A DNA stretch of 64,000 nucleotides from Rhizophagus irregularis (lineage: Eukaryota): positions 372,001 through 436,000 of the forward strand of contig NC_089429.1 of assembly GCF_026210795.1 (NCBI RefSeq). The letters are read 5' to 3'. Of the stretch, positions 4,906 through 64,000 are shown piece after piece. The notes under the pieces are model-generated. The model did not search any database and was not told where the DNA came from. It saw only the letters and a list, made by a program, of their open reading frames with translations. Numbering within the stretch: position 1 is the first letter of the stretch; every line of letters begins with the position of its first letter. Made by a program: the position numbers and the translations under genes.

Positions 4906-5499
4906 CGATACTGTAAGGTGATTCAATTTGTAAATTGTAATGACCTAAAAAAGAAAAAAAAATTCTTCCTATATATTATATTTATTTTACATTGTATTGC
5001 CCTATAAAAAAAATTCTGGAAAAACTCCGATAAATGATCATTTTCTAGTTTTCATTCCGAAGAAACTCAGACACATGATCATTTTCCAGACAAATTGTTT
5101 ATAGGGTTGTATTCCACAGAAATCTTTTCTCGAATTAACGCATTAGCGTTTATTCTTTATTGTGATGTATCACAAATAGAATGAATTTGGGAGAATAATA
5201 TAAATAAAATATATGAGAAAAAATACAAAAAAAGGTATTTGTGAAGAAATATATCTAATAATTCCAATTAAGTTTACCTTTTACTGGAACATATCTACAC
5301 ATGTCACCAACAATAAAAAATTATTTGTTATAACTTATTATTCTATGCAACTATATACGTTTTTATGAGTTTTTCTGAAGTTGATTTAAGAATTCACTTA
5401 AAAAACAACTTTATAAATAAAAGGTGTCAGTGGTATATTGTTTTTGAAATTCATTAAAACAAACGATCTCATTATCTTTTCAAAATTTTAATTAATTAC

Positions 5500-7796: not shown

Positions 7797-10700
7797 ATTT
7801 TGTTTTCAGTTTTCGTTATCAAAAATCAGTTTAGAGCAACAAGTTTTGTTTCAGTTTTTGTTACCAAGAATCAGTTTAAAACAAAGTCAACAAGGTTTGT
7901 TTTCAATTTTTGTCACCATCTGTACTTAAAAGGGACTTGTTGATCACACACGTATAGCATGCAGATCATAATTACTATTGGCTAATTTATCATGTTTATT
8001 TACTATGCTCACACGTATGACGTAAGGTTTTTATTCTGACCAAAATATCAAAGCGAATAAACAAGTTTTTAATTGGTCCGTTAATATTAATGTTACACTA
8101 TGATTTTACTATAATTCAGTTATAACTTATAACTGACTAAACTGAGGTAAATACATTATCAGTTATACTATTGAAATAACCCTTGGTAAAACTGTTAAAT
8201 TACAACCTAGATCCAGTGTTCCACAACTTGAACCATACCTACATGTTACACAAAGTTAGTACATTGGTTTGTAACCTTTAAAGGCTATAAAATTTTATTA
8301 AGCTTGGTCTTTTTCTTTAATAAAATGTTTCCAGAATTCACGTGAGCAAGGTTAAGAACTAAATGGATGATCTTTTCCTTGTAATTTTTGTGAAACTTGT
8401 AAAATATGCAAAGAGTAAAATCTGGTGTTTTAACGTAGCGATTTTTTTTTGGACTATAAAAAAATATATCTATCCATCCCTCTATCTCATCTTAGTAATT
8501 TTCCTGAGTTGAGCGCGCTTATCTGATTTTCTTACGGCACTTGTCCTATCAAATACTGATGGTATGATAAATTCATTATCTTCTGATTGGCGAAAATTAT
8601 GTCCAATAACAAGATTTGACAAATTTAACATTTTTTTATTAATTGATGTGTAAGTTGTATCAAATTCCTGATTTTTTGAAACATAAGGGTATTTTATTAA
8701 CTCAACGTTAGTATTTGTAGGATTTGAAAGAATAAAATCGAAATTAATATTGTATCTACACAACCATCCATCAGATTTTCAACTTGTAATCACATCTTTC
8801 TAATTTTTTTTGGATACAATTGATAATAAGTGATGGTTTTCCATTAGATGGATAATATTTGACAAGTAAAAGAATCATTCTTTAATCCTGTCATGTCGGG
8901 GAGAGTTGCAAAAATATCGCAATCTGCTTCTTTATCTTGAATCATTTCCATGATATTTGATGGTAATATATATCATATATATATATATACAGTATATCTC
9001 ATTAGATTTCTAGGATAAGTTGATGAACTGTATCCATAACTATACGTAAAGTACAAATATTCCCTATATTAATAAATAAATAACTATTTTTTTATTCAGG
9101 TTGCTGTAGCGTATTTTTTTTCTCCTAACGAACGATTGCAATAAATTGTTTTAAGATTCCTAAAGAAATACTTATAAACTTTATTTTTTTTTATCCTCTT
9201 TAGCCAACTAAATAATCACCATATATGTAATTTTAAACTTACTTATATTAAACGTCCATTTATTCTATTCATTATTTTCCAAAATTTTTTACTACACAAT
9301 CTATAAAAGATTCTTTTTTTAATAATGCCATTTTAATCAATTATGATTTAACAATTACTTTAGATGACCTGAATTTCCCCATTTTTTTTGTTCACAAATA
9401 TGGAACATGCATTGAAGTTCTAAATGGGCTGATACATAATTCGTCTATTACATGCTAATTTGATCTATTTAAAACCCTTCTATCGAAAAATATGAAAGCG
9501 GAAAATGAAAAAATTTATTAGTCGGAAGTGACGAAGGACTATATATTATTATGCGAAAGTTACGTTATTGATGCATTATTAAGTAAAATAAACTCATGCA
9601 GTCATATGTGATATTTTTCCCCGTTTCCTATTATATACATATATATATGGAGGTTTAGAAAACGTTAAAGAATCAAATTCGGTAACAAAATTTTTTTTTT
9701 GGATTCAAATATTTAAAAATATGTAGTGTAGTTCTTTGATTGTGACAGAAATCCCGTACACTTTATAGAAGACATTTTTAAGATGTCTTCTGTTATTTCT
9801 ATAAAAACACCGTAAAATGAAGCACTTTTTTCCGTTAAAATAATAAATTCGAATCCTTCCATTTTAAAGAAAATTAAATAGAACGCATAAATTATCAGAA
9901 ATTCGTGTTGAACTCAAGTTCATTAATACGCTATTTTTAAGAAAGAAAGAAGATAATGATTATTACGATATTATAGAAAAGGACGAATAAGAAGAAAATT
10001 CAATTAGATGATATTATTGATAAGAGCAAGAAAGAAGAAACTATATATTTAGAAAAGAGAATTTATTGGAATGATCTAAATAAAAAATGTCATTTAGAAT
10101 GTGGACGTATCATGAGTTTTGATGGATTTCAGAAAAAGAGATTGTGAACTAGAAGAAATTGATTCAGCTCAATTTAAAATAATTGAATTTAATTCATGGA
10201 AGATTGGATGATAAAAACAAATTTATTTTCTGGAGTTGATATTAACGCACGGAATTTTGTAGGATTTTACATGACGATTTACGTGATTTACGCAATAAAA
10301 CCCTTAAATCTATTGGAAAAACAATCCTTTATAGGGATATTTTGAATTGCGATTATGATTTAAGTACCCGGAGATTTCTGAAGGATTGAATTAAAAGATG
10401 ATATCCCAAAGGATATTATTCGAAATAAAGAGGCTGATTGTGATATTTTTGTGGCTATTGTTGATGCTGATGAGAATTCAAAAAAAGTAATTATTAACTG
10501 CCATATTAAAAAATTAGAAGAATCAAAAGAGCTTATAATTCATGGTATCCAAAAAAATTTTCGACCATGTCAATGCAAATTGAAAATTGATCTGATGATT
10601 ATTGGTTATGACACTTTAGTTCCATTCTTTCAGACACTAGTCTCGAATTAATAAGAAATTCTTATATTTCAAAAATCTGGAGTTTGATACTATAAAATTA

Positions 10701-11254
10701 TCTCAATCAATAGAAAGAAGTATTCCTTACTTTGGAATTCCTGTGTTAGACAAAGACAAATCGACTCGTCAAATACTGTCATTGGACATAATTTTCGCCA
10801 ATCAGAAGATAATAAATTATATATAGATATATTTGCTATAGTCTAAAAACAAATCGCTATGTTAGTTTGCCAGATTTTACCTTTCATATTTATAAATCGC
10901 GTACGTTTGATTTTAAAATATTTAAAAAGCCATTCATTAATTTTCATAAATCGCGTACGTTTGATCAATCGATTAACATAATAGATTTTAGTCCAAAATA
11001 TATAAGTTTATTCTTATCAAAAGATAATTATAAACCAATTTTATTAAATCAAAAAACAAAGCAAGTTAAAATTAAATATATTAATTGTAAATGCAATAAT
11101 CTTCACCGAATTTTTGACTTGTTGAAATCCTGTATTCTCAACCCCTCCATCCGTAATATTGGCAAAGATAGGATAAAGTTTTCATTCATCCTGTTGGTTA
11201 AGGCTGAAATTTCACTTGATTGGGAGGAAATGGTTCTATGATATCAACATTTTT

Positions 11255-11488
11255 TTCCACAATCAAAAAATGGGCATGAAAGGTATGGCCACAGCTGAAG
11301 ATAGTAATTACCTTCAGAGGTTATTTTAAAATTTCATTATTACATTCAGAACATTGCTCTAGCTCTAGAATTTCTTTATCCCTGAGAATATCGTCTTCAA
11401 GATATTGTAAGCAAACTTCCTATAGGTTGTCAGATTTCGGAGTTTTACCTGTTTTTCTCAATGTCCTGCTTTGTTTCGAAGCTGACAT
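11255..11488 (-). pseudogene. RING-H2 finger gene remnant
   Basis: MSASKQSRTLRKTGKTPKSDNL*EVCLQYLEDDILRDKEILELEQCSECNNEILK*PLKVITIFSCGHTFHAH: CxxC...CGHxFH motif with two in-frame stops. Confidence 0.6.
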
Positions 11489-13703
11489 ATTGGATACACT
11501 AGCTTTATCAATACCTCTTGTCATCCCATTTTATTTATAGCACTTGTAATTTTCGCAGGAGAAAAAATTTCCCGGATTTTACCAGCAATTATGCACTGCA
11601 TTTTGTCATTTCACTAATCCCCTTGCGAATCAATAAAAATGACTTCAGGATTAGCATACACTTCCCCGAATCCCATATGCGAAATAATGATTGCTTGAAA
11701 AATGTCTATATTCGAATATTGTTTTTATTAGTATGATACTAGCTAACTAGCACGCCCGGAGACATGACACGGCAAAAATTGAGTCAGAAAAAAAAAGTAA
11801 TGTGCGATTCGCACGTCACACAGCTTGGCAAGATATTTTCCTGATATCATAAAGTGGTTTCACATGACTGGCTATACTCAATAACGTATGAGTAGCGGGA
11901 AGAAACTCTCATTTTATGAGTTTTTCTCTTTAAACTCACTTCATTAATTTTGTTTATCTCAATATAACTTTGTATCACTTTATTTAGAATAAAAACCAAC
12001 ATATTTTTTTCAGCAATTTTCGTGGCCATTCTGCTATGGCGAACCCGGCTTTAGTAGACGACCCCGTTTTTGGCATTGAAATTGAATGAGAAATTTTATT
12101 CATAAATATTAGCATATAAGAATTTTTTTGACTATATTAATACAATATATCATGCCGAATTTCTTACCAAACAATCAGGATAGTCCAGCTTATAAGGAGC
12201 TGGAAGGCGCTTTGCTAAGGCAAAACTACTTTGAAAAATGGCATATATTTAGGGGATGGAAGCATGGATGTAAGGTTTGCGAGGAATGTGATCATCACTC
12301 ACATCTATATTGCAAAAGGTGTAAGAAGGTTGCGGAAGGAATTAAGTAATTTGATCAATAAAGCAATGGTGCAAATTTACCAGACATTTTATAATTTTTT
12401 CACATGGGAAGCAAAGTGTGCTATTATTTTTTCGATCAAGCTTCATTATAGCTTGATAAAATCAATGCGCAGTAATATTATAGTAATCATTACATGTATC
12501 ACAGGAACAAGTAATTGCACATTCTCAAACTTTCTCGCACATTCTCAAAAATTATGTATAGCCTCTTGATGATCCTTATATATGGATAGCATTAAGTTCT
12601 TTATTATTAAATTAAGGGGATGCGATTTTCGGGATGCGATCATATTAATGTAATTTTCCCCAAAGTATATTCCAAGATTGATCCTGCAAATTGTATAAAA
12701 AAATGATGTCCTAGTTAGTAAATCTTTTTATCTGAATATAAGCAAGAATCAAGGAAAAATCAAACGAAAATTCTAATAAAATTAATAAAATTTAAAACTG
12801 CCGTTATTTGCATCATCAATATTTACAATCAAACAAACTCGTATATTCCGCAAAGTAAATAATAAAGTAAGTTAGTTTATTGCTCGGCTAGCTTCTTGAA
12901 ACATGTCATCACAATGTTAATCGATTTTCCCGCCTCTATAGATGTTCCAAAATAAAACGGACGTATTACTCTTCTTGTTATATATCGGCATTTTGATCTT
13001 CGCCGAGAAAATCGTGATTGTCGGCACGTGTCAAATCAGCACAGTAAAATTGTGGATGTCCGTCACATGCTTTATATCAAACAGCTGGCACAGTAAATCA
13101 AACAACTCCTCTTGCCATTATTTACGTAATATCATGCTTTCGATACAAAAACCATTAAGCAACAATTTTTTCAAATATTTGACGGACTTAGAGTATTACA
13201 AAAATGAAATATAAAGGTAAGGGTTAAATGAAATGGATTATTAGTGTATTGTTTATTTTTTATCAAAAATTATGTAAATATACTTATTTATTTTCTGGTA
13301 CTATAGGTTCGAAATTAATTCATCACGGAATAGTTCTCTTTCGGAGCTTAATCTTTTACATGATCTATGTGGGTGGGAGTGAAAAGGGTGATATAGATAG
13401 GCGAAAATATTGTATGTATAGTTGGGATAGGTTAGAGTGTAAGAAACTTATAGATAGAGATATTAGCAATAGAAACAAATTAGTTATAGAGAGAGCAAAG
13501 AAATAACTTGATGCTGGGACTCGCATTAAATGGCTTAGGATCCGCGTACTCCCTCCCTCTTTGATAGCATCATATATTTCATTTGCTTCTGATTATGTAA
13601 AGTTTCTGGTAACGATCAGAATCATGTGACTTTGACTGCGCACAGTAAAAAAATCATTTATGTAATACATACGTCATACGTGTCTTCACACGATATAATA
13701 AAA

Positions 13704-26681: not shown

Positions 26682-29600
26682 TTATGAATGTTTAATAATT
26701 TCAAGTGAATTTAGTGAATTTGAAAATTGTAGATTATTGGATGATGAATCTAAAAATAATAAAAAAAAATAAATATTAAAAATTATAAAAAAATTGTAAA
26801 AATTTAATAAAATTACCTTTAACATCATTATTTATATCATATAATAATAAATCTAAAAATAATAATATAAAAAAAAATTTAAAAAATTATATAAATTATA
26901 TAACTTAATAATAAATATATTAAATTACCTTCAGTATTTATATTAGATAACTGTAACAATTTATTATAAATAATTTCAATAGTAGGTCTTTCTTCAGGAT
27001 TTTCATTCCAACAGGCAGTATAAAGATTATAATAATCAGATGGTGTATCAGGTATTTTTTCCTCTCTTTTTTTATTGCAAATAATATGTATTGGCAATAA
27101 TATTTCATCAGTATTTTCAAATGGAGGATAACCACTTGATAATTCCCAAAGTAAAACTCCAAGACTATAAATATCAGTTTTCCATGAAAATGGTGGAAGT
27201 TGAGAGCCTTTATGTTTAAGTAATTCTGGTGCTACATATGGAATCATTCCAAAAATTTCTGTATGTATTTTAGTTTGAGTTTCCATACTTTTAGCATATC
27301 CAAAATCTGTTATTTTTGCTTTTCCTTTATGTATAACTATATTTTTTGCATGCTAAAAAAAACAATTTGATTATTAATTAATATATAATATATTTATTAA
27401 AAATATAAAATACTAATAAAAAAAAAACTTACAAGATCTCTATGTATGATTTTTTCTTTATGTAAATAATGCACCCCATTTGTAATATCAAAAGCAAATT
27501 GATATTTTTTATTCCAATTAAGAAATGAAAAATTTTTTTTGAGATAAACTCGCAAGTTACCACTATCAGCATATTCCATAACTATACAATAATTATTTTG
27601 TGATTGTAATTCTATTTTAATTAAAATAAATAAATGTTACTATGATTTTAAATTTAAAATAATAGTTTATATTTTACATACCTTGAGTAATTCCTATAAA
27701 ACGAATAATATTTTCACAAGCATGCACTCTATTTTGCATTTGTATTTCATGTTGAAATGCATCTTCTTGAATATCATTTGAATTATTTAATTTTTTAATA
27801 ACAATAAAATCATTTATTTTTGACCAACGTGCTTTAGATACAGAACCAAAATGACCAGAACCAACTTTTGATAAATCAGTTAATTCATTCCATTCTATAT
27901 ATTTAATTGCTTTTTCTTTAATTGCAGATTTTATCCATAATAAATCTTTTCTTATAGAAATATAATTATTAAAGATATCTTGTAAACCTATTAATAATTT
28001 TGCAAATGTAGGTCGATAATCTGGATTTTGTTTAACAGCTTTTTTTACAAGAATTTGATATTCCTTAGGAATATTAGTATCAGGTGTAAATTTTTCTCGA
28101 TATCCTTTAATTACTTTTTTTATAATATCAGGATTTTCAAATTCTGCATATGGAACTTTACATTCAGCAATCTCCCAAAGAAGAATACCATAACTATAAA
28201 TTTCACATTTAGTATTATATTCTTTTTCCTTATTCACTTCCAGCATTTCAGGAGAACTATATTGAATATATTTTTTATCTTTGAATAAATTATTAGCTAA
28301 TTGAAAATTTGTAAGTTTTGCAACATCATGATTTGTTATTACAATATTTTCAGAACTAATATTTTGATGAAGAATCTATAAAAGAAAAAAAAAATTAAAA
28401 TGAATTTTAATTAAATAAAATTTCTAGAATTTATTACCTTAACAGAATTAAGAAAATTTAACCCTTTGGCAATATCATAAGCAAATTTTAATCTAAATTT
28501 TATTTCAATATTTTGTCCATATAAAGAAATATATTTACGTAAATTTCCATTTTCTGCCCATTCAGTTATTAAATAAAATTTAGAACCATCATAAGTAAGA
28601 CCATAAAATTGAATGATATTTTGACAATATTCAAGTTTTTTAAGGATTGTAACTTGATTTTCAACTTGAACAATAATATGATTTTCTTTAACAGTTTTAA
28701 AAGCAACTTCATCACCATTTATTCTATTAATGTATTTTCTTAATTTATCACTTCGAGGTTTATCATCAGACATTATATAATTATAGTATGGAAGTGGAAA
28801 TTCATTAAATCTTATTCCTTTTTTATTGTCAATCAGACTATGCATATTAATTACCATTTTGATAATTTTATTCATTTCATCATTTGTATCTGTGATATTT
28901 TGATTCATATTATATTCAAATAACTCAATTATACTTTCTGTTAAAGCTTCTTGGAATTCATCATTCAAATTTTTACTTTCTAAATTAACCTTAGGATTAA
29001 TCATTAATAGACTAATACAAGTATCATATTCATTACATAATTCTATAATTTTTGATTTAACAGATTCAATTAATAGATTATTTTGTGTTAATTCTTCGGC
29101 AATAAAATTTTTCATGTCTTGAAGAACTTGAACTAATCTTTGTAAATTAACATGATTTTTTGAAGTATATAAATTATCATCAGTATCTTGTAAAATATAA
29201 ATATTAACTGTATTAGTTGCTTTGGTAATACGATCGATTAAAATTTTTGTTATTTTTTTATGTTGAACTTTATGATATAAATCCATACTTCTATTAAATA
29301 TGCTGGCTACATCTTTAATAAGAGGAAAAAATAGTTCAAAATAAATAGTATTATTTATTTCAGATATTTGTTTCATATTCATACCGGTTATACTTTCTGC
29401 TAAAATTGTTTGAAATTTTATAAGTTCCTTAATATCTTCTTTCAAAATCTTATCTTCATCTTGTTCCTTAAATTTCTTACAATTATCAAAGTTTAATAAA
29501 TCAATACAAGTATTATTATATTCTTCACGTAAATCTTTAAATTTATATTCGATTATTTTATCTTTCAAAAAATCTTGTACTGTATTATATTGTGTTATTT

Positions 29601-30693
29601 CTTCAATATATTTTTTCATTTCTTTAAAAACTTGAAATAATCTTTGTAAATGTGAAGTATCTAAATCTTTATTTGCTTGTATAACTGCAAAATATGCTTC
29701 GAACATTCGTTTAATCAAATTAAAAGTTATATTCTTATTATGTTGAGCAATTTTATACAATTCCTTAACTTCATTAAAAATTTTAGCTATTCTACTTTTT
29801 ACTAAATCCGTTAACAAAATTTTATCATCTTCTTGTTCATTAATCTTAAAATCAAAGTTTATGTTAAAATTTAATAAACTAATTTTAACAATATCATTAT
29901 ATTCATTACGTAATTCTTTAAATTTTTTTTCAAATGTTTCAGTTTCTAAAAGTTCCTGCATCGTATCATATTGCGTTATTTCTTCAATATATTTCTTCAT
30001 ATTTTGAGGAACTTGAAGAATTAATCTACGTAAATTATTATGACTATCTTCATAATGTGATGTGAATAATTCATCTTTTTGTTGTATAATTTTAATTAAA
30101 GGAATTACTTTGGAAATACGTTTCGTTAAAATTCCTGCTATTTTTTTATTATGTTGAGCTTTTTTACACAATTCCTTAACTTCATCAAGAATTTTAACTA
30201 TCGTATTTATCATTGAAGCTGTTTGAAATTTTAAAAATTCTTCAATATCTTCTTTCAAAATTTTATCTTCTTCCTGTGCATTAAATTTTTTAAAATCAAA
30301 AAAATCCAATAAACTAATACTATTATCATATTCTTTATTTAAACTTTTAAATCTTTTTTTAATTGTTTTGACTTTTAAAGATTCATTATATTGTGTTTCT
30401 TTGACAAATTTTATCATGTTTTGAAGAACTTGAACTAATCTTCGTAAACTAGTATAATAATGGTTTGAAATAATTAATTCTTTTCTTTTTTGTAAAATAT
30501 TAACTGCTGAATTTGCCATGGAAATACGTTCCATAAAATTTTTTATTATATTTTTATAATGTTGAGTCGTATGATATATATCCGTAACTTTGATATGTAT
30601 CTCAGTTACATCTTTAATAAGTGGTCCGAATTTTACGAAAGGTTCTGTGTTGTTAGTTTTGTCTTTAATTTTTTTTTTTTGATACTTATTCAT
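26682..30693 (-). CDS. Four MLKL-like helical-bundle repeats, pseudokinase and TKL-type kinase (exons 30693-28438, 28375-27682, 27611-27433, 27352-26929, 26852-26817, 26749-26682)
   Basis: Four ~140 aa repeats with (A)QHNK..I...RI and LxRLxQV..MKKxI motifs. Kinase 1 has HQN and NFQ in place of HRD and DFG. Kinase 2 has GSGHFG, HRDLHAKN, DFG and APE. GT-AG introns join in frame. Confidence 0.85.
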
Positions 30694-33473
30694 TATTCAT
30701 ATACTGTAATATCCAGTGTCGATTAGTGTCGATGATTGATAATTTGTCGTTCACAAATCACAATAATCTCTCTAATGAACTTTTTCTCTAACTAAAATTA
30801 TATTTATTATCTGCAACTCGGCGATAATTTGCATTAATCAATGGCTTATAGACAAGAAAGGTTAAATTTTTCGTCAGACGTGTTACAAAAAAAAATTCCT
30901 GATTATAGGCGCCCAATTTTAATAAAAGGCCTCCTAAAAATATATTCAAAAAAAAAAGAAAAAAAAACTCGTTTCCATACAATTCCGCAGTATTAGAACT
31001 GATATTTCTCCAGCAAGCCTGTTACAATATAGAAATATGAGCGTAAACCGTTACTTTCGAAAGACACTCCTATAGAGCTTGCCTCTGGGTTGAAGTGAAG
31101 GTTGAAAATAATTTTCAGTGGCTCTGCTCTCTTTGGTTCAATCTCGGGAGGTTTTTTCTTCGGTTTTCCTCCGTTACTGTGGCTCCCAATTATCCAGTGC
31201 CAATAACCATATGGTCATAAAATATTTTTATTTTTATTTTTTTTTTTACCGCCCATATGGCTTTCCTTATTCATGCACGTCAGTACTTGGTCAGCAGGCC
31301 AGAGCTTGCCGATCATCATCATACCCTACCCTTTTTTTGCATTACCTACACACCTTCTTTACGTATTGTATACCCCAACTATTGGCATAGGATGTACGTC
31401 AAAATTTCAATGATGATCATCCCATGGATTCTTCATGTGAATTCAGCCGATCATGACGGTTGACTTATTTTATCTATTATTAATTTTTCATCAGCTTGAA
31501 AATTTAATGGTTGGCCGAAATAGGAAAAAAATACGGTGAAAAAATTAATATTTTTTGTTTCTTAGAGTAGGTAATCTAATTTTCTACATATTAGATCTTA
31601 GATTTTGCCTCCGCCCTTCTCTCCATAGGAAGGCGTGTCATAAATAAAAAAACATTTTTTTACCCATAAAATCCAATTTTTTTTTTGTTTGTTAATGCGA
31701 ATCAAAAATAAAAAGTTTATTATCTAATTGAATAAAAAATTGGATTATCGTTTCCATCTTAGTTTTAATTATTTACTTTGTAACAGTATGGTGCTCCATT
31801 TCGATTATTTAAACTAGTAAAATTGCAAAAAAATTTGGAGCTTAATGAAATTTTTACTTTCATACGATCAAACGATCAACGGGTTTTACTTGTAAATTAT
31901 ATGGGTCTGAAACATTTTAAAAGAAAGAATTTACAAAAATTTTTTTGTAAAATTTGTCATATTTTTTTTTATCAAAAGTGAATGATTTGTTTTTTCTTGG
32001 TAAAAGTTTCATATATCTCTATAAGGAAGTAGGGTGTCTGATTAACATTAAGGAACCTCGGGTGTCTGGTGTGATAACCTAAAAATCTTAATTCCGGCCG
32101 GAATTAACTTAATTTCAGCCAAAATTAACATTTATTTTATAACTAATGATCATGATGATTATTATTATTATTCAAAGTAAAGAAAATTAAGCACCTGAAT
32201 CACTGAATGTTCTTCTTTAAGTGTGATTCTCCTATCTGATAAAATACTTTTGTAACTAAAAAAACTACATTTAACATTTACAACAGATACTGGAAATCAA
32301 ATATATACTAAAGTAAGCTAATGCATTAAGTTCAGATAATAAATGCAATTTATTATGCCAATATATGTCTAAATCTATTAATTCTTCAGCTACTTTGTTA
32401 AGTTTACAATAAATTGCCTATTTTTGTATTAGAAAAATAAAATTTTTCAATAATTCTATAATTTGCCATATTGTAGTTATTAGTTAGTATTTGAAATCAA
32501 ATATATTTAAATATATTCAAGTATTCATTTAAATTTATAAAGTGTATTTGAATAATATTTGAATAAGTTTAAATTTATTTTTATAGTAAATTAGTAATAT
32601 TTTACATACATTTAATCTGAATTATAATTTATAATTTTAATTCCATTAAATTTAAGAAATTTAATATCAAATTAGAATATTAACTACAATATATCTAGCT
32701 AAATAAATACTTAAATTAACTTATTAACTACTAAGCTTATTTAAACTTTGCTAACAACTAAAATTTTACGTAATGTATTGTACAATACTTGTATAAGTAT
32801 TGTACAATATATTTAAATTCTATAATGAATTGTACAATAGTTTTGGATTATAAATTGTCAAGTATATATTAATACACAAGCACTTGTAATTTATATAGTC
32901 ACAATTATATTTAAATAAATCATCTTACGATTTTAAACAATTTTTTTTTACTTATACATTACACAATATATATTACAATGGATTGTTATACATATAACTA
33001 TATAACTACTATGTTGTTATTTTTCATTGACAGCTAATAGTAAGTATTTTAATCTGATTAATCACGCACTTTAAGATAATGAATTACTTCTTCTTAATTT
33101 GGCTCATTAAGGAGGTTCCTAACATAATGTTAGTGTTTCATCCACTTATCCGCTGGAAGTCAGACTAAAATATTTCTTACTAATAACTTTTCACACACTC
33201 TTTCTTACTTTTCACACCTATAGTATAAAATTTTTTAATATAATGTTTGATTCATAATTAAATACAAATTTTTATGCACAACATGCAGTAAATACCTGTG
33301 ATTTTTCAAGTATTAAATTATATTACATCGTGAATTACATCATGAAGTACATAGAAAACTGAATACGAGTTACTTCAACTGAATGTTTTCTGCCAAATCC
33401 TCCATGTCCATGTCCATAAATATATCCACATTCATGTTCATGTTCATGTCCACGTCCATTTCTATAGCTTGTA

Positions 33474-34505: not shown

Positions 34506-35457
34506 CTAAGAAACGGAAACCGTTGTAAGTCCGGAGCGAAAGATTTTGTACAAAAATCCAAATATCTTTAAAAATTCAATTTGTACAAAAAATCTGGTGT
34601 CCCTAAAAAAAATAAAAAAATGAAACGTTAGAAACGTTTCTTTAAAGTTAAACAAATAAATTAAAACCCCTCTTCACAATTTACCTTTAAAAGTCAGCAT
34701 ATACAAAAAACCCGCATTCCAGATAAAAAAATAAAAATGAAATGTTAAAAACGTTTCTTTAAAGCAAAACAAATAAAAAACAACTTACCAGTCAAGAAAT
34801 CCAGAAACCCTAGGATAAAAGTAAGAAATGAAACGTTAGAAACGTTTCTTTAAAGTCAAATAAATAAGAAAAGCCAATTTACCTTTAAAAATCTGGCGTG
34901 TACAAAAATCCTGTGTCCCTAGAAATAATAATAAGTGAAACGTTAAAAACGTTTCTTTAAAGCAAAACAAATAAAAAAACAACTTACCAGTCCAGTATAT
35001 ACAAGAAATCCAGAAACCCTAGGAAAAAAGTAAGAAATGAAACGTTAAACGTTAAACGTTTCTTTAAAGTTAAACAAATAAAAAACCCTTCACTTCTTAA
35101 TTTACCTTTAAAGTCCAGTATGTGCGAAATCTAGAAACCCTAGAAAAAGAATAAGAAATAAATCAAAAACATTCCTTTGAAGTCAATTAAAAAAAAATAT
35201 ACTCTCTAGACGAAACCAAACAAAAAAAGAGATTATCAGGTAATCATGTTTATCATAAACTTATTATGATTATTACACTTGTTTATTTTTGAAGTAGCAT
35301 AAAATTTCAATGACACAATCTGTACAGACCAATCAGAAATGACGCGTGCGGACATCGCCACGTGATCCAATATGTCATTAAGGTTCATAAACATATATAG
35401 TCCTTCGCTTCGCTCTGGACAATTATACAGATATCATACAGATATCAGACAGATAGA
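34506..35457 (-). mobile_element. Non-autonomous Helitron/Helentron-like element
   Basis: Minus-strand 5' A|TCTATCTGTCTG; 3' hairpin AACGG-TTT-CCGTT then CTTAG|T. Subterminal inverted repeats GTCCGGAGCGAA (34529) and TTCGCTCTGGAC (35409). No TSD. Confidence 0.65.
34560..35165 (-). other. Array of 6 repeated micro-exon/intron units, non-coding
   Basis: Each unit has (C/T)TAAC, a pyrimidine tract, TAG, a 21-36 nt exon and GTAA(G/A)T. Example exons: 35139-35106, 35018-34988, 34918-34883, 34809-34789. Confidence 0.7.
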
Positions 35458-37346
35458 TATATGTATGTCAAAATTGTGTAACTGGGCATATTGGATACCT
35501 GATATGTGTACAATAAATGTGATATATGTGTATGATATTTAACAATACTACACATATCAGGTATCTGATATATGTAGTAGAAATATAGAAAATCGGTGAC
35601 ATATATTATAAACATCATATAATATCTTATACATATCGGGTAGTCAATTGTCAGGTACCCAGTATATTATAGTAAAATATCAGATAGATATTATACACTT
35701 GTACAATATTTATTTTATGCAATAATATAAATACTAATAAATCCATAATTTAAATTCAATTATAATATTAATTTATTTAATAGTACTAAAAGTTTTATTA
35801 TTTTTAATTAATAATAAAAAATTACAAAAAAATAAAATTACAAAAAAGTATATAAAAATTATTCAAGCCATATAAACAATTAGAATTATGTATATCTGTT
35901 ATCTACAAATAATGTGTTCGGTTATTTGCTGCTTATTTTTATCTTTTTAATATTTAAAAGAAAGAAATAGAAATAGTAAAGTATATTAGTAATAATAAAG
36001 ATATTAGTATAAATATTGTTAAACGAATTTGTAAGATAAAAGGAATGATATTAGAAATGTTAATAAAAGAAAAGAAACATAAAAAATGGTTAGTAATAGA
36101 AAATGTTAGTATATTTAGTAGTAAAATATATTAGTAAAAACAAACATTAGTAGGTTAAAAAAAAAGAAAAGAAGTATTAAAAATATTAATAATTTAAATA
36201 AAAATTAATAAAAAATATACCTTTATATTTATTTCACCTTTTTTTGAAGTTTGCTATTAAATAGCAAACTTATTAATTCATTTTTTTAATAAAATAAAAA
36301 AATAAATATTTAAATTACCTTGATATGCGTTATTTCCATATTCTTCTAAAAATACATGATTAGATTTTCTTTTTCTTGAAATTACTATATATAAACCAAA
36401 TTAAACTTTGATTAAATTTTTCTAAAAGAATGTTTAGATTACCTTGACATCTTTTAATTTAGATTTTTTTTTTCTTGAATTCGCAGATATAGAATTACCA
36501 TCTTTACGTATAGTATCAAAAAATGTCCGCTCTTGATGTGAAAGATACTTAGGAACCACCTCGTCTTCTGATTAATGAGACCCTAAGTCAGAGGAGGCTA
36601 GCCTATCAGGTACAAGTACCCTACAACTTCATCCCTAAGTAGTCAAAAATCTTGGGTGGTTTCAGACCACAGCGTACTACATGATTAGTCTTTGGACATG
36701 TTGGGATTTGATAAGTGAAAGAAAAAATAACTCCAGCGCCAGCGTTTTGTAAAGAATAATAAAATAATATTTTTAAGTTAGTTCTTTCTTTAAATTTTTG
36801 AAAAAATTTGTTTCTTAAAATCATAATATTGTAAAAAAATGCTGGTTGCTACAACTGACGGACAACGACAAATTGTCAGGCTACCTCCGGACAAAGTAAT
36901 TGGAAGGCAGAAAATGTCATAAAATATCCAGCCCTATTTCATAACATTTTCCTCCAGGATAAAGCAAATATTACAAAAGAAATTGTAAATATATTTAACA
37001 AGCAATAGATACATGGCCGTTGAAAAATATATTTACATTTCATATTGTAATACTACAGTCTAACAAAGAAAGACAAGAAATTGCAAATATATTTAACAAG
37101 CAATAGATACATGGCCGTTGAAAAATATATTCACACTTATACCACAAAGAAAGACTTAAACTACAACATATTGTAAAGAAAAATATGAAAAATACGTGTA
37201 TATCCTATTTTCATATCTTGCTTAATAGCTCTACTATTATTTAAAAGCAGCTTTTCTCTTTTTTGTATGTGGGTAGATGTGTACATTTTTCTTTTCTTTT
37301 ATTCTCTTCTTTCGTATGTGAGTGGTAGGTACATTTCGTGAATAGA

Positions 37347-39221: not shown

Positions 39222-40620
39222 TTAAAAAAAAAATAAACAATAAAAATATATATTTACCATCTTTGTATCTTCTTTTATCTGTTGAATTTTCTGATGATTC
39301 CTCCTCAATTTAAATTGAAATTGTGCTTTTTTAAGTAAAATTCGGTTTGGATTATGACCTTGAGAATTATAAAGATCTTGTATTTTAATGATTGTATCAT
39401 TATCATTATTTTTATGAAAATCCTCAAATTTTTTAGATAAAAAATTCGCATGCACAAAATAAACTATACTGAATCTTATCCCTCTAATAATCGGAAGGTT
39501 GCCATGTAATAGCAAATAAGAAGAAAATGCAACAATTTGTCCTGATTTTAATTTTACCAGGATTTGAAGTTGAGGAAAACATACCTCAAAATCTTCCAAA
39601 GCTACCAAAAAACAAAGTCCATTTGGATCATCATTACTATCCCAATGGTAATTACTGATTACGTTAAAATTAATAGCTATTGTGGGAAAAATTCCAAAAG
39701 TTCTCGGTACAAATGGTCCCATTGTTAACTTGCTTAGTTTTGTATAATAATGTTCATAATATTTGTTAACAAATCTGTTTACACTATTTGATATTGGTTG
39801 TAATGCAAAAAGTAGATCGTTAACACAATTCTGATGATCAATATTATGAGAGCTGGCAGTATCAAAAGTAGTATATGGAAGATCACCATAACTAATGAAA
39901 GCTCCAAATCGTTCAGCAAGATTTTTCCAAAAACTTCTACTTCGATAGGTTGGATTGTTCAACATATGAAAATAATAACTATTTATGGCTTTGGTTGCTT
40001 CAATGACAGCATTAAAATCATCAAGTCCATCCAGATGAACCAAAGTTTTACCACAACCATCAACAATACATTCAGAATTTGTTACATAACAAAAGTTCTT
40101 AATATTATTATCTTGTGCTGATACAATCATTTTTTTTTTATTTATAGTTGATTTTTTTTTCTCAATTTCTAAAATTTCTTCAGATATTTCCAAAACTTTA
40201 GAATTTCGAATTTCAGCAGCATGTGAAAGTCTCTTCCATTGTGATTTAAGATGTTGACGTACATCTCTTTTACTAATTGGCTCTTTTAATTCCAACTATC
40301 AACCAAATTCAATCCACATATCTTTATTATTGTTCATTAATTGATTATTAGTTGATTCAGTAATACTTTTAGCAAGATTATAAAATTTTAAGGGAATTTC
40401 AGGAATTTCATTATTATTTTTAGATTGTCTTGATTCCCTTATTAAGCATTCAATTAATAAATCCATTACTGAAATATTTTTCATAATTGAAATTGTTATT
40501 ACATTAGAAGATATTCGGCAAAGAGCGCAAAGCGGAACACTTAACCATTCATTTTTCATATATCGAACTATATCTGAGGTACTTAAATCTCTGGAACCTC
40601 CTTGAGTTCGATGCTTAAAT
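39222..40620 (-). pseudogene. TET/JBP-like 2OG-Fe(II) dioxygenase pseudogene
   Basis: HWDSND ... LLHGN ... RFSIVYF (HxD...H...RxS). Tandem stops TGA TAG at 40301-40296 link two ORFs in frame. The usual GGxL segment appears deleted (EDFEVCFP). Upstream exons likely. Confidence 0.75.
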
Positions 40621-52349: not shown

Positions 52350-53457
52350 CAGTCAACTCCCTCTATAGTCACTCCCGTTATAGTCACATTCTACTATATA
52401 GTCACACCAGTTGAATGTTCAAAACACTTTATTATTAAAAACTATCCTATATAGTCACAATCTATCTATAGTCACTATCACACCTATCCTCAAAAATCTT
52501 ATATTAAAAAGAACCGTTTATAATCACAGTTATATAAAGAATATATTAAATAACTTGGCATCTAATAATCGTACAAAGATGTATCATAGCTTGTTAGAAT
52601 CGTCTCACTGAGATGAATCGAATGGTAGTAGTTTTATCCTTTTGCGATCACTGGCTGATGAGTTATTCAACAAAATGTTAAGCATCGGCATTATTATATT
52701 TCTTGATTTACGTTTACTGCGCCATTTAACATTTTGCTAAATATCTCGGTATCTAGTGATTGTAAAAAGACGATTAATAGCTCGTTGGAATCGCCTCATC
52801 AAGACGAATCGAATGGTGGTAAGCTCAACTCTTTGTGATCAATATTGACGGAGTTACTACTTAAAAACCATTTAATATTTTTTAATTTCGGAAATTGATC
52901 TAGTGATTGGATTTCAATGTATTTTATACCATTAGATTCGCCGCATTAAGACGAATCGAATGGTAGTAAGATTGTCTCTCTAGGATCAATATTGGCAGAG
53001 TTATTACACAAAAACCATTAATATTTTTTTAATTTTGGAAATTAATCTAGTGATTGGATTTCGATGTATTTTATACCATTAGAACCGTCTCATTAAGACG
53101 AATCGAATGGCGGTAAGATCGTCTCTCTAGAATCAATATTGGCAGAGTTATTACACAAAAACCATTAATATTTTTTTAATTTCGGAAATTAATCTAGTGA
53201 TTGGATTTCTATGTATGTTATACCATTAGAACCGTCTCATCAAGACGAATTGAATGGCGGTAAGATCATCTCTCTACGATTAATATTGGCGGAGTTATGA
53301 TACAATAAAGTTTTGAGTATAATTTTAGCTAAAATTATGTTAATTTTTAGACGGAATTATGATATACTAATATAAGAAATTTTTTATATAGTCACATCTC
53401 TTTATAATCACCAAATATGGACTATCCCAAATGTGTGACTATAAAGAGAGTTGACTG
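52350..53457. mobile_element. pogo-type non-autonomous element with internal ~146 bp tandem repeats, TA TSD
   Basis: TA|CAGTCAACTCCCTCTATAGTCAC ... GTGACTATAAAGAGAGTTGACTG|TA. GAATCGAATGG module repeated five times. Confidence 0.92.
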
Positions 53458-57304: not shown

Positions 57305-58910
57305 TGTTATCCTGTCAACGATTAAAGTCAACTGAAAAACTTTAACGCTTTAACAAGTTAACTGGAGTTTAACTTAATAGGAGAGTCTTAAGTTGATCAC
57401 AAATAATCACGTGAAATAACGTTGGATGTTCAGTTAAAGAAAATAGGTTTTTATTAAAATAATGTAAGGTTTTAAATATGACGAAAAATATAGATAATCT
57501 CTTGGTTGCGAAATTAACTATCTTGAATTATACTACTGGGAATAATACTCTTTTCGTATAACTCGAATACTACAATACAATTCTTAACTAACTGACTGAC
57601 CTCCCCTTCTACTTGGTAAAATCCTATCCCTATTTATAATAAAATAAAAATCAAGAATATTTGATAAAGTAAATAAAACAAATATAATAAATAAATAAAT
57701 AAAATAAAATAAATAAATAAGATAAAATAAATATATCAAATATAGGGCTTCAATCAGTTTCGGTAATTACCGAACTGATCTGATCAGTTTCAGTATCAGA
57801 ACGGTTTTAGTATTCTGATTTACCAAACCGAACCTTTCAGTAAATTTACCAATTAGTTTCGGTAACTTCGGTTTTGGTATCAGTTTTACAATTTACTGAA
57901 CCAATTTACTGAACTGATATTTTCGGTATCAGTTTCAGTAAATTTTACCGATCACTTCAGTAAATTTTACTGATCATTTCGGTAAATTTACCGAACTGAT
58001 TTGCTGAACATTTTGTGACGTTGATAAAAAACGTCGCGAAATGTTTTTTTTTGACAATTTAATAAAAATATTGCAAAATGTTTTTATTTGTTAATTTATT
58101 TAAAAAAAAATGTTTCGCAACATTTTTTTTTGATAATTTAATAAAAACGTTGCGAAATGTTTTTATTTGTTAATTTATTTTAAAAAAAACGTTTCGCAAC
58201 ATTTTTTTTCATAACTTAATAGAAAACGTTGCGAAATGTTTTTTATTAGTTAATTAATTTAAAAAAAAACGTTTTGCAACATTTTTTTTGATAATTTAAT
58301 AAAAACGTTGCGAAATGTTTTTATTTGTTAATTTATTTTAAAAAAAACGGTTCACAACATTTTTTTGATAATTTAATAAAAACGTTGCGAAATGTTTTTA
58401 TTTGTTAATTTATTTAAAAAAAAACGTTTCGCAGTTTTTTTTCATAACTTAATAGAAAACGTTGCGAAACATTTTTTATTAGTTAATTTAATTAAAAAAT
58501 GTTTCGCAACATTTTTTTTTCAATAATTTAATAAAAATGTTGCGAAACGTTTTTATTAGTTAATTTAATTAAAAAAAACATTTTCGCACGTTTTTTAATA
58601 AAAAACGTTGCGAAAACGTTAAAAACTGAACTGATAATGAATCGGTAAATCGGTTCAGTTTTCGGTATTTACCGGTCAGTTTTGGTTTTGGCAAAAACTG
58701 TACTGAACTGAACCGATCGGAGCTCTAATCAAATATAACAAATAAAATTAATAAAATTAATAAAATAAATAAATCAAAATATCAAATATATCAAATTTAT
58801 CAGATTTATCAGATTTATCAAATAAATTAAGAAAATCAAGAAAATTGAAAAAATCAAGGGATCTACAAAATGATCTACAAAATTGATCTACATAAAATTA
58901 CTGCGCTACA
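57305..58910. repeat. Dispersed repeat, solo-LTR-like (TG...CA), copy 2, containing a hAT MITE
   Basis: Starts TGTTATCC and ends GCGCTACA; homologous to 24450-25438. No TSD recognised. Confidence 0.65.
57743..58727. mobile_element. Non-autonomous hAT-type element, 8 bp TSD ATCAAATA, with internal ~78 bp tandem repeats
   Basis: TAGGGCTTCAATC versus reverse complement TAGAGCTCCGATC; TSD at 57735-57742 and 58728-58735. Each repeat has GTTGCGAAA/TTTCGCAAC inverted halves. Confidence 0.88.
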
Positions 58911-59229
58911 TTTCTATTTTAACAATATATTATATCATTATATATTCATAAAAAAAAAGTAAAAAAAAAATAAATAATTATTTCTACACTATTTTCTATT
59001 TTTTTTCAGTTTGCAGATCTTTTTTTAAGCTTTTTTAACTTCTTTTTATTTATTTTAACAAAGCTTATCTATTAATTGGTTATATTTTATTTTTTCAGCA
59101 AAAATTTTCCCTTTTCTTTTTTTCCATTTCTCCTATTTCTATTTCTCTATTTCCTTATTATTTTCTATTTTCCTTCTACTTGTACTTAATTTAAAAAAAG
59201 GTTGAAAAGCACATCATGCAAGATAATGA

Positions 59230-61170
59230 AATGTTTCTATTTTTTGATTTTTTTTTTACAGTTCCTGGATGCGACATTTTGGTAAGTTTGTTAAGATTTA
59301 TTTTTTTTGTTTTATTTTAATGAACGATTTTTAATGGCTTGTTTCTTAATTTTTTTAGATGGTTTGGTTCTATGAATACTTAAACATATAGGAATATGGT
59401 AGAAAGATTTTTTCATAATTATTTATTTTACAATACAAAATGCCAGGCCTTTGAACACATGAAATTTTAGTAGAAGGACTTAAAATTTTTTTTAGTTGAG
59501 ATCTTTAGAACGCATAGTAGTAAAATTAGAAAATATTCTTTTTTAACATTTTGATTTTACTTTTTTTTTAGACACGTAGTATTTAGTAGGAGATTATAAG
59601 AATTATTTATTTTAAATTTATTTCTTTAAATGAGACATTTCTAACATTTCAATTTTTTCATTTTTGTAGATGATTAATTCTTTAAGATACTTGGATGCAT
59701 GAAAAATTCTGTGAAGAGATTTTTATTTTTATTTTTTTAACAAAACGATCATTTATTTTGTTTTGCAGATGATTGGTTCCTTGAAATACTTGGATATGTG
59801 GAAAAGTCAGTAAGGGAATTAATATAAATAACTCTTTCAAACGAAATAATTTTAACGTTTTACTTTTTCCTTCTTTTTGTAAATGACCAGTCTTCTGGTA
59901 TCTGAACGTGTGAGAATTCGGTAAGGAGAACTAGTTAATATCGGCCATATTTCACATGTATCATGTAATTAAAATTAATAAATATGATGAACAACTTTTT
60001 TTTTTAACTTTTACCACTGTACCTTTAATTTCAAATTGTTTATCATTTTATCATATTTCGTTTCCTTTTCTTTTATCCTTTCCTTTGTCCTTTCTTTTCC
60101 TCTTCCTGTCCTTTTTTCCTGTACTTTCCATTTAAATATTCTTTATATTTAAGTAGTTCTCTCAATCTTCCCTGACATTACATTTCAGTAAGTTCATATT
60201 TTTTTTTCTTCAATTGTTTTTATTGAATAGTTTCTTAGTTCTTTTTTTCTTTTTTTTTTTTAGACAACTAGGTATGCAGTCTTTGGTCTTTAGGCTAATT
60301 TATAGGATTTTGGTAGGAATTTTATTTTTCTTTTAAATTATTCTTTTAACAAACCATTTACTAACATTTCAATTTTTACTTTTTTTAGATGGATTTCTTT
60401 AAGACTTGATATTTTCCTACAAGCTTTTTCTTTCTTAACAAAAGTTTAGCAATTAAACATGTGTTTAAAAATTTAGAGTATATTAAAAATATTGATAACA
60501 AGATATTATTTTACGGTTTTGTATATATTTTTATTGAAGTTATAAAAAAAAATGATATTCAATTTTTTTTAGTACTGAATTATTTTTATTAAAACATAAT
60601 ACTGACATTTCGATTTCCTTTTTTTAGATGGCTTAATTCTTGGACGTGTGGGAATTTGGTAGAAAATGATTATTTTTTAATTATTTTTTTAACAAAACGT
60701 TTGCTAACATTTTGTTTTTTCTCTTTTTTAGATGGCTTCTTCTTTGGATATCGTTAGAGATGCAGATTACAGTGTGTTTAATTTTAATGAAATGCTAACC
60801 TATTAATGAAATAGATCTTTAGTTCTTTGAATGTAATGTTTAGATGCAGAATTTTGGTAAGATATATTTTTTTTACTAAGTTACACAAATACTAACTTTT
60901 TTTTTCTTTTTTTTAGACAATTGGCTCCTTTAGATGCGAATTTTGTAAGTTATTTAACTTTTTTCTTTAAATTTTTTCTTTTAGCGAATAGTCACTAACA
61001 TTCATCATCTTTCCTTTTCAGTTGGTTGGCTTGAACGCATGGAAAATTTGGTGAGACTCTGTTCTAATTATGCATTTCAATGAAATATTTTATAACATTT
61101 CAATTTTTTCTTTTTTTTAGATGATCCAGGTCTCTAGATGTTTGGGGATTTGGGATTTGGGGATTTGGGT
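59230..61170 (+). other. Array of about 15 related micro-exon/intron units, non-coding
   Basis: Recurrent CT(A/G)AC, T-tract, YAG, a 20-41 nt exon and GT(A/G). Example exons: 59262-59281, 59359-59398, 59670-59710, 59769-59809, 60628-60658, 60917-60944, 61022-61050. Confidence 0.75.
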
Positions 61171-61697
61171 TAAAATCATAGGCTTTCTCACCAGCTGGCA
61201 AGGTGTATGAAATTTCTTTAATTTATAAAGAAAGCCTTGCTAAAGTTATCTTTAGAATAGGTCTAGTAATATATTGCCTTAATTGAGCGTGGCTACGAGA
61301 GTTTATAATTCTTAAATTGCCTTATTCCTATTCATTACACACATATATATCTTATAATTAATTATACAATTTATTTTTAGAGAAAATTTATTTTTCACCC
61401 AGGTGATTTCTCACCCAGTCACATGATAATATTATATTAATATAATTATTATAAATAATTTAATTGGTTAAAACGCGCTCCTTACTATCTATAAATAAAT
61501 AAAAATTTTACCTTAGAGAACGCGGGTTCAATTCCTGCGCCAGGCTTTAATTTTTTTTTTATTTATAGCATCATGCTACATGTATCGCAGGTCATTGGTG
61601 CAGCAGATATAACACGTATAACGCATTTTCTTTGTATTCACACGGTTAGTAAAGTCATATTCACGTCGTGTTTTTTTTACTTTTATGCTCTCTAATC

Positions 61698-63989
61698 ATG
61701 ATTTCTGAGGTTATACCACCCATTGAATCCTCCAATTATGATAATCATGATAATAATGAAGATAACGAAAGTACTACGCTATTTGCTGAAAATATTTTAG
61801 GTTTTAATTTTAAAGATTGCGTAAGAAGTTTACCTTTAATTAACACCCCGATCAAGCTTGAGGTGGGAACTAGCTTTTATTCTATGACAATAGCAATTCA
61901 CTATATAGAACAATTCACTCTTCAGAATAATTTTGCCATTTTTAAGCATAAAAGTGAAAAGTTTTTGGATGGTACTTGTAGAAAGAAGGTACTTAAGTGT
62001 AATTTAGGAGGAAGGTATACTCAAAAACTTTCAAGGCCAACATCAGATAAAATGACGATGAAGGGAAGCAAGAAGCAAGGGTGTAAGTGGCAGATAAATA
62101 TAACGCGACCGTCAAATTCATCAATAGTAACTGTAACACAATTTCATTCTGAGCACAATCACAAAATTTCTACCGAAACTTTGCAATTTGCTCCTACTTA
62201 TAGAACTTTTCCTGAAGAAATAATGGATCAAATTGAGTTTTATGTTATACATGATAGATGTGACGCGTCAATAGTTAGAAATCTTTTGCAACCCAAGTAT
62301 CCTGACCATGTATTCCTTATTCAAGATCTTGGAAATGCTATCCAAAAGATTAAATGGGAAAATGGAATAAGCCTGGACGATGCAGCTTTTTTATTATTGA
62401 AGCTTTTTGATTTACAAGCTAATAATCCTGCGTGGTTTGTAAAGCTATTATTAGATGATACAAGTAATCGTCTGATCAGTATTTTCTGGATGTTACCAGA
62501 GCAACGCGAAAGATGGATCAAGTTTTATGATATCATCATTCACGATAATACCGCAAAGACCAACAAGTATAATTATCCGTTAAGTCTTTTCATTTTAATC
62601 GATAACTACAACAAGAGTAGATTAGCTGCTCAGGCGTTCTTGCAAGATGAAAGACAGGAATCGTACGAATGGCTACTTCGATGCTGTCTTGAAGCGTGTA
62701 AAATTTCTCTATTAACCTTTGTTACTGATGGAGATTCTGCGATGATTGCAGCTGTTTCCACAGTATTTCCTGAAGCCCATCATATGCAATGTCTATTTCA
62801 TCTTTATCAGAACCTTCCAAAAAACCTTCGTTCATGTTTAGGTTCGTCACTTTATCAAGAATTTCTTAAAGATTTTAGGGCAGTTCAACGTTCCCACTGT
62901 GAAAAAGTATTTGAGCAAAGATCTCAAAATCTAGTTGAAAAATATGCTGCAGAAGAAAGATATATATCTACAGTACTATTAAATCGAAAGCATACCTGGG
63001 TAAAATGCTTTACATCACATCATTTTACAGCAGGAACACAATCTACATAGCGTGTTGAATCAGAAAATGCATTAATTAAAAAAGCTATACAGTCAAGCTT
63101 TTTTCTCTTGCAAGCTCAGGAAGCTATTGAGAATCGGCTTGAATTTGAATCTATTAATACGCGTTATTCTATTTGGAAAACTTCAACATTACAATATACA
63201 CAGTCACTTATCATTCAAACGTTTTTTAGTGGCATTGACAGCATTATGAAGAAGTATCTTACTCAGCCTATTCATGATGCACATTATAAACAGATGTGCC
63301 AATCTGTGTGTTATTTCATGCATCAAGTATCAATTGCAGAAGCTCTAACATTGGATGATGATTCATTTAAGCCAATCTTTGATGGAGAAGACTCTGCTGA
63401 AACTTTTGCCGAAATAGATGAAGATAGGGAACTGGACTTGCAATCACTAATGGCAATGGTTAATATTGATGATATCATTGAGATATGGAAGATTTCTAGA
63501 TATAATTATCCAAAGACCTACCAATTCGTGATTCTTCTTAGTACTGGTGAGCATTTATGTACTTGTTTTATGCTCATCACTCATGGTATTGTGTGTCGGC
63601 ATTTTTTTAAAGTATTTGTTAAATCATCCAAAGCACGTTTTCATTTAACATTGATACCTTGCCGTTGGTATAAAGATGAATATATTAGTTTAAGTGAGGG
63701 TTATTTTAATGAAAAGGTTATAGGCAACAGAAATTTTAATTATAGTAGCACCTTTGAATTTACCAGAAAGTATACTATAAATGATCTTTCAGAAGAATAC
63801 TCCAAACAAATAACGCGAAAACAACTGAAATATGGCATTTTAATGGGTGAAGCAAAAAAAGCCATTCAGTTTGCAATTTGTGATGATGATGAAGAATTAA
63901 TCAAACTTATAAAGGAGTATAATAAAAGGAAAAAAACTCAATACATTCAGGCGGAATCAGTTAAGCAACAAAGAGCTTTAGCAAATTGA
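61698..63989 (+). pseudogene. MULE/FAR1-like transposase with SWIM finger; in-frame stop
   Basis: FAR1-type GCKW...HNH; HDNTAKTN, VTDGD, CLFH; TQST*RVES (TAG at 63048); SWIM motif CTC...GIVCRH. Probably continues past the window end. Confidence 0.9.
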
Positions 63990-64000
63990 TTAGCAGAAAA

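Follow-up and report, generated by a model that had tools for sequence, protein, structure and literature searches.

What is made from a long row of very short exons, if not a protein, is the question raised by the region upstream of a transposase gene near the right-hand end of the window, the 64,000-nucleotide stretch of Rhizophagus irregularis DNA analysed here, which is A+T-rich and full of transposon genes. Positions 59262-61152 (G+C 24.5%) hold, on the plus strand, 16 tandem units of an intron plus a micro-exon (E1-E16), which we refer to as the ladder. The units are spaced 81-132 nt apart, except for two longer steps of 239 and 271 nt. A strict rule of acceptor, 12-55 nt exon and donor, which was written after the sequence had been seen, found eight ladder units on the plus strand and none on the minus strand, whereas 1000 dinucleotide shuffles gave 0.93 ± 0.98 units with a maximum of 5. 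A preliminary description had reported micro-exons of 20-41 nt; such exons were confirmed, with an actual range of 14-49 nt. Their lengths are mostly not multiples of 3, as had been noted (2/16 are, or 3/16 if E10 runs to its read-supported end at 60520), and the reported common exon motif is present across the ladder with a mean consensus match of 66%. A lone copy of this motif lies at 36681-36711, with neither an acceptor before it nor a GT after it.

The individual exons differ in how well their splice signals are kept. E1 (59262-59281, 20 nt) lies between CAG and GTAAGT, and E2 (59359-59398, 40 nt) between TAG and GTAGAA. E3 (59440-59469, 30 nt) and E7 (59883-59920, 38 nt, donor GTAAGG) have AA in place of the acceptor AG in the window copy. 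Both signals are present around E4 (59572-59585, 14 nt, TAG/GTAGGA), E5 (59670-59710, 41 nt, TAG/GTGAAG), E6 (59769-59809, 41 nt, CAG/GTAAGG), E8 (60154-60187, about 34 nt, AAG/GTAAGT), which was placed via gene models of other copies, and E9 (60264-60312, 49 nt, TAG/GTAGGA). E10 (60389-60520) has lost the homologous donor at 60414, and its part from about 60477 on may represent one more decayed unit; reads use the donor GTATAT at 60520 instead. E11 (60628-60658, 31 nt, TAG/GTAGAA) is followed by E12 (60732-60771, 40 nt), in which TAG is combined with the weak donor GTGTGT, and by E13 (60815-60856, 42 nt), which has an AG without a T-tract and the donor GTAAGA. After E14 (60917-60944, 28 nt, TAG/GTAAGT) and E15 (61022-61050, 29 nt, CAG/GTGAGA), the ladder likely ends with E16, whose motif part of 32 nt (61121-61152) has the acceptor TAG, lacks the homologous donor GT and continues into a short repeat. 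The donor GT is thus intact in 14/16 units and the acceptor AG in 14/16. The preliminary description had about 15 units keeping branch point, T-tract, AG and GT; AG and GT stand in most of the 16 units, but E3, E7, E10, E13 and E16 each lack a signal, and a CTAAC or CTGAC branch point was found in only 6/15 units scanned.

Searches for structured RNA in the ladder were negative. Rfam gave no match within 59230-61266 at E up to 5, the tRNA gene scan called 0 genes, and the hairpins of the three exons folded were not significant (z = -0.45, 0.02 and -0.02). Box C and box D occurred together in 0/14 ladder introns, and a snoRNA host gene was rejected on this ground and on the lack of an Rfam match, H/ACA being judged by Rfam alone.

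The intron bodies had been described as diverged, but they proved still homologous. When the T-tract was excluded, alignment of the 3′ halves of 13 ladder introns gave a mean score of 3.0, compared with -0.5 ± 0.4 in shuffles and -5.3 for 73 other acceptor-like sites of the window. The common splice signals therefore partly reflect common descent. A second array on the minus strand (34545-35200) contains six units whose introns carry the ladder's 3′ module but whose exons differ from those of the ladder. A profile built from 12 ladder units matched five of its introns (E = 4e-5 to 0.14), and the alignment score between the two arrays was 4.6, compared with -1.0 ± 0.4 in shuffles; as judged from these alignments, the two arrays have an intron module in common while their exons differ. 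The preliminary description had seen here a distinct array and a recurring class. The recurrence holds, with 12 gene models in two species, but the arrays are more closely related than had been noted. Inverted 13-mers at 34529-34541 and 35408-35420 bracket the second array (three matches in the window, 0.18 expected), and no such pair flanks the main ladder. The preliminary description had taken the class to be TE-borne; of the two arrays, only the second has such flanking repeats, and it may be a non-autonomous DNA element carrying a ladder. A microsatellite-like run (35425-35460) and a promoter-like stretch (about 35330-35370) lie next to it, and all of these, together with the 13-mers and the array, are located between two 135-nt direct repeats 1207 nt apart.

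Raw reads under the R. irregularis label were compared with 59200-61170 at 84% likeness, which yielded 652 reads from four runs, 570 of them fitting only partly. Read joints fell at the predicted sites for 6/15 neighbouring exon pairs, in three of the four runs and two studies. E1 was joined to E2 in five reads (two from X17 and three from X21), with the sequence upstream of E1 retained; E2 to E3 in two (X17); E10 to E11 in four (X21); E11 to E12 in five, across a 73-nt GT..AG intron (one from X17 and four from X21); and E13 to E14 in five (one from X17 and four from X21). Two further reads (X18) joined E13, E14 and E15, and 25 of the 28 letters of their middle exon were those of the window. 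Run X19 had no ladder joints among its reads. There were at most 23 joint observations in the 652 reads, 15 of them from X21, some of whose reads were probably counted at two joints. The other nine junctions, including those of E4 and E5 and the E12-E13 joint, had no read among the joints listed (two more rows of the joint table lie outside them), and the comparison method likely misses reads composed of several tiny exons. X17 and X18 are poly(A) RNA on record; the RNA status of X21 is a guess. Introns were retained in many ladder reads, and because the read library is unstranded, the strand of the ladder is assigned from GT-AG.

At 60753, 42 of 52 reads carried a letter other than that of the window, indicating that most of the RNA stems from close copies and not from the window locus. 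Similarly, since the acceptor of E3 is AA in the window copy, the E2-E3 reads would come from another copy. Close copies of the array are transcribed and spliced, and the expression claim covers these family members, not the window locus. Splicing of the ladder, as put forward in the preliminary description, is thus borne out at 6/15 junctions, mostly from close copies. The joined read forms may alternatively represent a processed DNA copy. In addition, abundant read classes with loose ends at 60685-60728, 60914 and 61065-61120 had only the intron 3′ module in common with the ladder and then continued, without splicing, into other exon-like sequence; the module family may thus be transcribed from additional loci.

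The spliced product showed little sign of coding. In a 936-nt spliced model the longest ATG ORF had 55 aa (shuffles: median 41, 95th percentile 76), and 24 of the 29 ATGs of a refined 796-nt model opened ORFs of <20 codons. Stops numbered 7, 7 and 13 in the three frames of the read-supported chain E10-E15. When 60627-61172 was translated through its stops, none of 226 candidates gave a protein of 100-319 aa that matched at E up to 10, and a shorter stop-read-through ladder frame matched two short gene models. An LRR gene made of alternating 31- and 41-nt exons was rejected because the lengths do not alternate and there was no Pfam match.

Database searches returned 12 short hypothetical proteins (67-126 aa) built from ladder exons: by name, nine were from R. 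irregularis, one was nameless but clustered with such a record, and two were from R. clarus, on different contigs. According to these gene models, the array is present at several loci across the two species. One locus has two isoforms and a locus-tag prefix identical to that of a model of the window MULE, but lies on a different contig, which suggests a second chromosome of the same assembly. The models preserve exon order, although their frames conflict (E6 is used in all three frames, and two frames each occur for E7, E14 and E15) and their N-termini differ; a few short exon assignments in this comparison are cross-matches between similar exons. Pfam gave 0 matches for the 4/12 models scanned. 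One frame path through E11-E16 recurs in 5/12 models from both species, with about 40 of 48 predicted residues identical (~83%); we did not count it as constraint because gene finders give like paths on like DNA. Of the read differences listed, the seven exon variants checked (in E12, E14 and E15) were all non-synonymous in the commonest model frame. A search of 1.84 billion representatives gave eight matches, all in Rhizophagus, in clusters of 1-2 members. Two DNA pattern scans of metagenomes gave 0 and 7 matches, all 7 judged chance from their flanks; such scans gave 0 matches in viral contigs and none in plasmids. Judged by sequence, the ladder RNA likely encodes no protein, and the 12 annotated hypothetical proteins are probably erroneous gene calls on parts of a single spliced, non-coding array. 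The preliminary description, which had seen no ORF, is upheld by the longest ORF lying within the shuffle range, by the stops in all frames and by the conflicting frames of the models.

On its right-hand side the ladder is followed by a separate, very high-copy repeat of 151 bp (61165-61315) with imperfectly paired ends and AT on both sides. It contains stem arms at 61180-61188 and 61229-61237, a smaller hairpin at about 61241-61256, and CTAG followed by T at 61263-61267. The contig depth in X5 rose from ~40-250 over the ladder to 3,000-15,000 at 61224-61272 and was higher at 61272 than at 61257. Reads of three runs matched through 61298 and beyond, with flanks that vary on both sides. The depth jump and the varied flanks indicate that the stem and CTAG belong to this separate repeat, which appears MITE-like, its class being unassigned, or may be the shared end of some larger element. 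The repeat also occurs in poly(A) reads with many different flanks, has small hairpins (z = -2.3 on the minus strand) and has no Rfam match.

The stem and CTAG had been read as a possible Helitron 3′ end. Helitron1 ends, as described in the available part of PMC5148889, have CTRR and a short hairpin 10-12 nt before the end. The locus resembles such a terminus in having CTAG, then T, and stems nearby. In contrast, its CTAG is internal, as the enclosing repeat continues ~50 nt past it, and its stem, which encloses a loop of 40 nt, stops 25 nt short of CTAG. Both elements of the proposal thus exist, but the Helitron end was rejected. No Rep-helicase domain was found among the 16/23 window ORFs scanned.

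Further downstream, 61380-61697 (plus strand) is likely the left end and 5′ region of a MULE whose other end would lie outside the window; this inferred left end (~61380) is downstream of the ladder. A tRNA-T-arm-like stretch occurs in it at 61517-61545, with a weak tmRNA match at 61521-61538 (E = 0.07) and no tRNA gene called. The FAR1-MULE transposase gene occupies 61698-63989 on the plus strand. Over 96% of its length as query, the ORF at 61698 matches a Rhizophagus irregularis record with 100% identity, which marks the DNA as R. irregularis-type. The gene has an in-frame stop (63048-63050) that database models skip via a predicted intron, whereas related proteins read through the stretch. 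Read depth was 0 in ten bins over 61840-64000 in X17, X18 and X20, although X5 contigs of the same organism label contain the transposase. X20, a sister run of X21, is RNA-like in that it lacks the transposase.

Upstream of the ladder lies a repeat that we class as solo-LTR-like (57305-58910), with a second copy at 24451-25516; the copies are 80% and 71% alike in two pieces, and no target duplication was found for the copy at 57305-58910. It is interrupted by a putative hAT-like MITE (57743-58727), which shows an exact 8-bp target duplication and contains a 79-bp array. Five molecules in X18 begin at 58906, and the motif of the MITE array resembles a motif just before the ladder branch points.

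The preliminary description had also proposed that splicing itself is selected. Taking the exon consensus match as 0.66 per site, the retention of GT in 14/16 units had a binomial P of 0.0003 and that of AG in 13/16, with E13 uncounted, a P of 0.002; at 0.75 per site the values were 0.009 and 0.035. This test is open to ascertainment bias, since the units were partly found by their splice signals, and the introns are homologous. Selection on splicing is therefore suggestive only, and the proposal is weakly supported.

We favour, with moderate confidence, the reading that the locus is a tandem intron and micro-exon array whose close copies give spliced RNA and likely no protein, and that it likely belongs to a dispersed ncRNA family independent of the neighbouring MULE. 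A unit of ~100 nt, intron plus exon, would have been duplicated head to tail, and the whole array would then have been copied to other loci. The LTR-like repeat, the 151-bp repeat and the MULE would be separate, later insertions around the window copy, itself partly decayed. RNA polymerase II presumably reads through the array, and the introns of 40-110 nt would be incompletely removed. With its 29 ATGs in 796 nt and short ORFs, the product may be turned over fast. Selection, if present, would most likely keep the act of splicing and not the product, for example so that a repeated locus stays gene-like and open; we put this step forward tentatively and think it rather less than even in likelihood.

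Its main rival is a neutral, decaying tandem repeat, whose signals were inherited from one real intron and whose splicing is a by-product of stray transcription, with no selection. The six splice signals lost or crippled in the window copy fit such decay, as do the low read depth, the frequent intron retention and the absence of a conserved fold in the three exons examined; moreover, homologous introns would share their signals even if nothing had selected them. However, the retention of GT and AG exceeds that of exon positions (P = 0.0003-0.035), and exon order is common to models from two species, so we consider neutral decay unlikely, if still a serious contender. The weak donors, lost acceptors and retained introns could also mark a small-RNA precursor, in which weak, tightly packed introns stall spliceosomes, RNAi is recruited and related repeats are silenced. 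Analogy speaks for it, as poor introns and stalled spliceosomes recruit RNAi in Cryptococcus (PMC6232588, as available in part), and 41% of R. irregularis small-RNA loci lie in unannotated regions according to the available part of PMC8647823. Nevertheless, spliced poly(A) products exist and the ladder has no Rfam match, which leaves this reading quite improbable.

The gene models invite a protein-coding alternative, a micro-exon gene family that makes variable short peptides via exon skipping, as schistosome MEGs do. The 12 annotated proteins, the locus with two isoforms and the E11-E16 path in five models from two species are what it would predict, and 96 codons become reachable if exon skipping is unrestricted. 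The Schistosoma MEGs described in the available part of PMC10526429 have exons that are mostly multiples of three, introns of 100-5000 bp and secreted products with a signal peptide. The ladder is similar in its rows of very short exons, its multi-copy family and the possibility of exon skipping, but its exons shift frame, its introns measure 41-233 nt and no ORF is kept. A MEG-type gene was rejected on the 2/16 multiples of three and the lack of a single conserved reading frame. The 7/7 non-synonymous variants, the stops in every frame of the read-supported chain, and the small clusters confined to Rhizophagus also argue against coding, and we regard a micro-exon family as very doubtful. The preliminary description offered another alternative, a many-intron, uATG-rich 5′ leader that would damp expression of the MULE transposase. 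The ladder shares the strand of the transposase and precedes its ATG at 61698 by 550 nt, with only two overlapping AATAAA sites (61494 and 61498) in between. Yet the transposase had no reads in three runs that contain ladder reads, the high-copy repeat and the likely MULE left end intervene, and X5 ladder contigs are, by a rough measure, ~3-4 times deeper than transposase contigs (38, 38 and 27 versus 9 and 7). Such a leader would measure 1229 nt with 33 ATGs, and 0/74 transposase relatives align convincingly to ladder exons. Zero depth over 61840-64000 in X17, X18 and X20 speaks against co-transcription with the transposase, which would be expected of a MULE 5′ leader or of Pack-MULE cargo; the leader was rejected, and the proposal is highly improbable.

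An extension of the favoured array reading is that Glomeromycota carry mobile non-coding elements with an "intron ladder" as cargo, one spliceable module in tandem with exchangeable exons, by which a repeat would be taken for a host gene by the splicing and RNAi machinery and so stay transcribed and unsilenced. The idea is compatible with the module shared by two arrays, with the 13-mers that bracket the second one and with the dispersal of copies in two species, but we think it improbable. In C. elegans, nuclear RNAi is hindered by introns (PMC5554785, in the part available); for R. irregularis, both RNAi and the CG methylation of repeats are described (PMC8647823).

We compared the ladder with known systems. 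One intron module was found in two arrays with different exons within the 64-kb window. Introners, or introner-like elements, are near-identical introns dispersed in unrelated genes. The ladder likewise has one intron sequence type in many copies, also in a second array with other exons, but its copies lie in tandem and its exons, too, are homologous, a pattern that favours module duplication over insertion into unrelated genes. Another comparison is with the FIRRE lncRNA. In the available part of PMC4820808, 7/13 human and 11/23 mouse FIRRE exons are copies of one local repeat, the RRD, which has a nuclear-retention function. Like FIRRE, the ladder RNA is transcribed and spliced, has by computation no conserved ORF, and many of its exons are copies of one repeat. 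Unlike FIRRE, whose repeats are largely at one locus (PMC4820808), the array is multi-copy, with models on different contigs in both species; its repeated unit is an intron plus exon of ~100 nt, and a sequence relation is not expected. By analogy, the ladder would work like a repeat-built multi-exon lncRNA such as FIRRE without being a member, and its novelty relative to FIRRE is a dispersed family with an intron-exon repeat unit.

Within R. irregularis, the ladder resembles the Class B orphan genes and unannotated small-RNA loci of PMC8647823 in consisting of domain-less, repeated, TE-proximal models in repeat-rich regions; those are treated as genes or unannotated loci, and the word intron is absent from the main text of that paper in the part available. 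No description of the ladder structure was found in the literature searched, including the available parts of the AM-fungal genome papers PMC10234402, PMC8647823 and PMC11952901. Nor did we find a paper joining Rhizophagus irregularis with micro-exons, or introners with Glomeromycota. The ladder family may be present as an unclassified repeat in the curated libraries of PMC8647823 and PMC11952901.

The ladder family thus names part of the unclassified-repeat and orphan-gene fraction of AM fungi. Its many independent splice sites, its lack of an ORF and its several loci in two species make it suited to testing directly whether splicing is itself under selection. Should ladders shield repeats from RNAi or methylation, they would represent a transposon-host strategy of a new kind, in a symbiont of central ecological importance.

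Several other features of the window were observed. A 357-aa ORF at 39222-40295 on the minus strand, in a transposon-rich stretch, shows weak similarity to Tet/JBP oxygenases (E = 0.001, which falls short of the Pfam cut-off). Also on the minus strand, 26700-30700 contains an MLKL-N plus kinase gene and then a 103-bp two-copy repeat with minus-strand donor-like sites. Tandem arrays with 88-96% identity occur at 5743-6823 (270 bp), 7404-7758 (105 bp) and 52788-53305 (147 bp).
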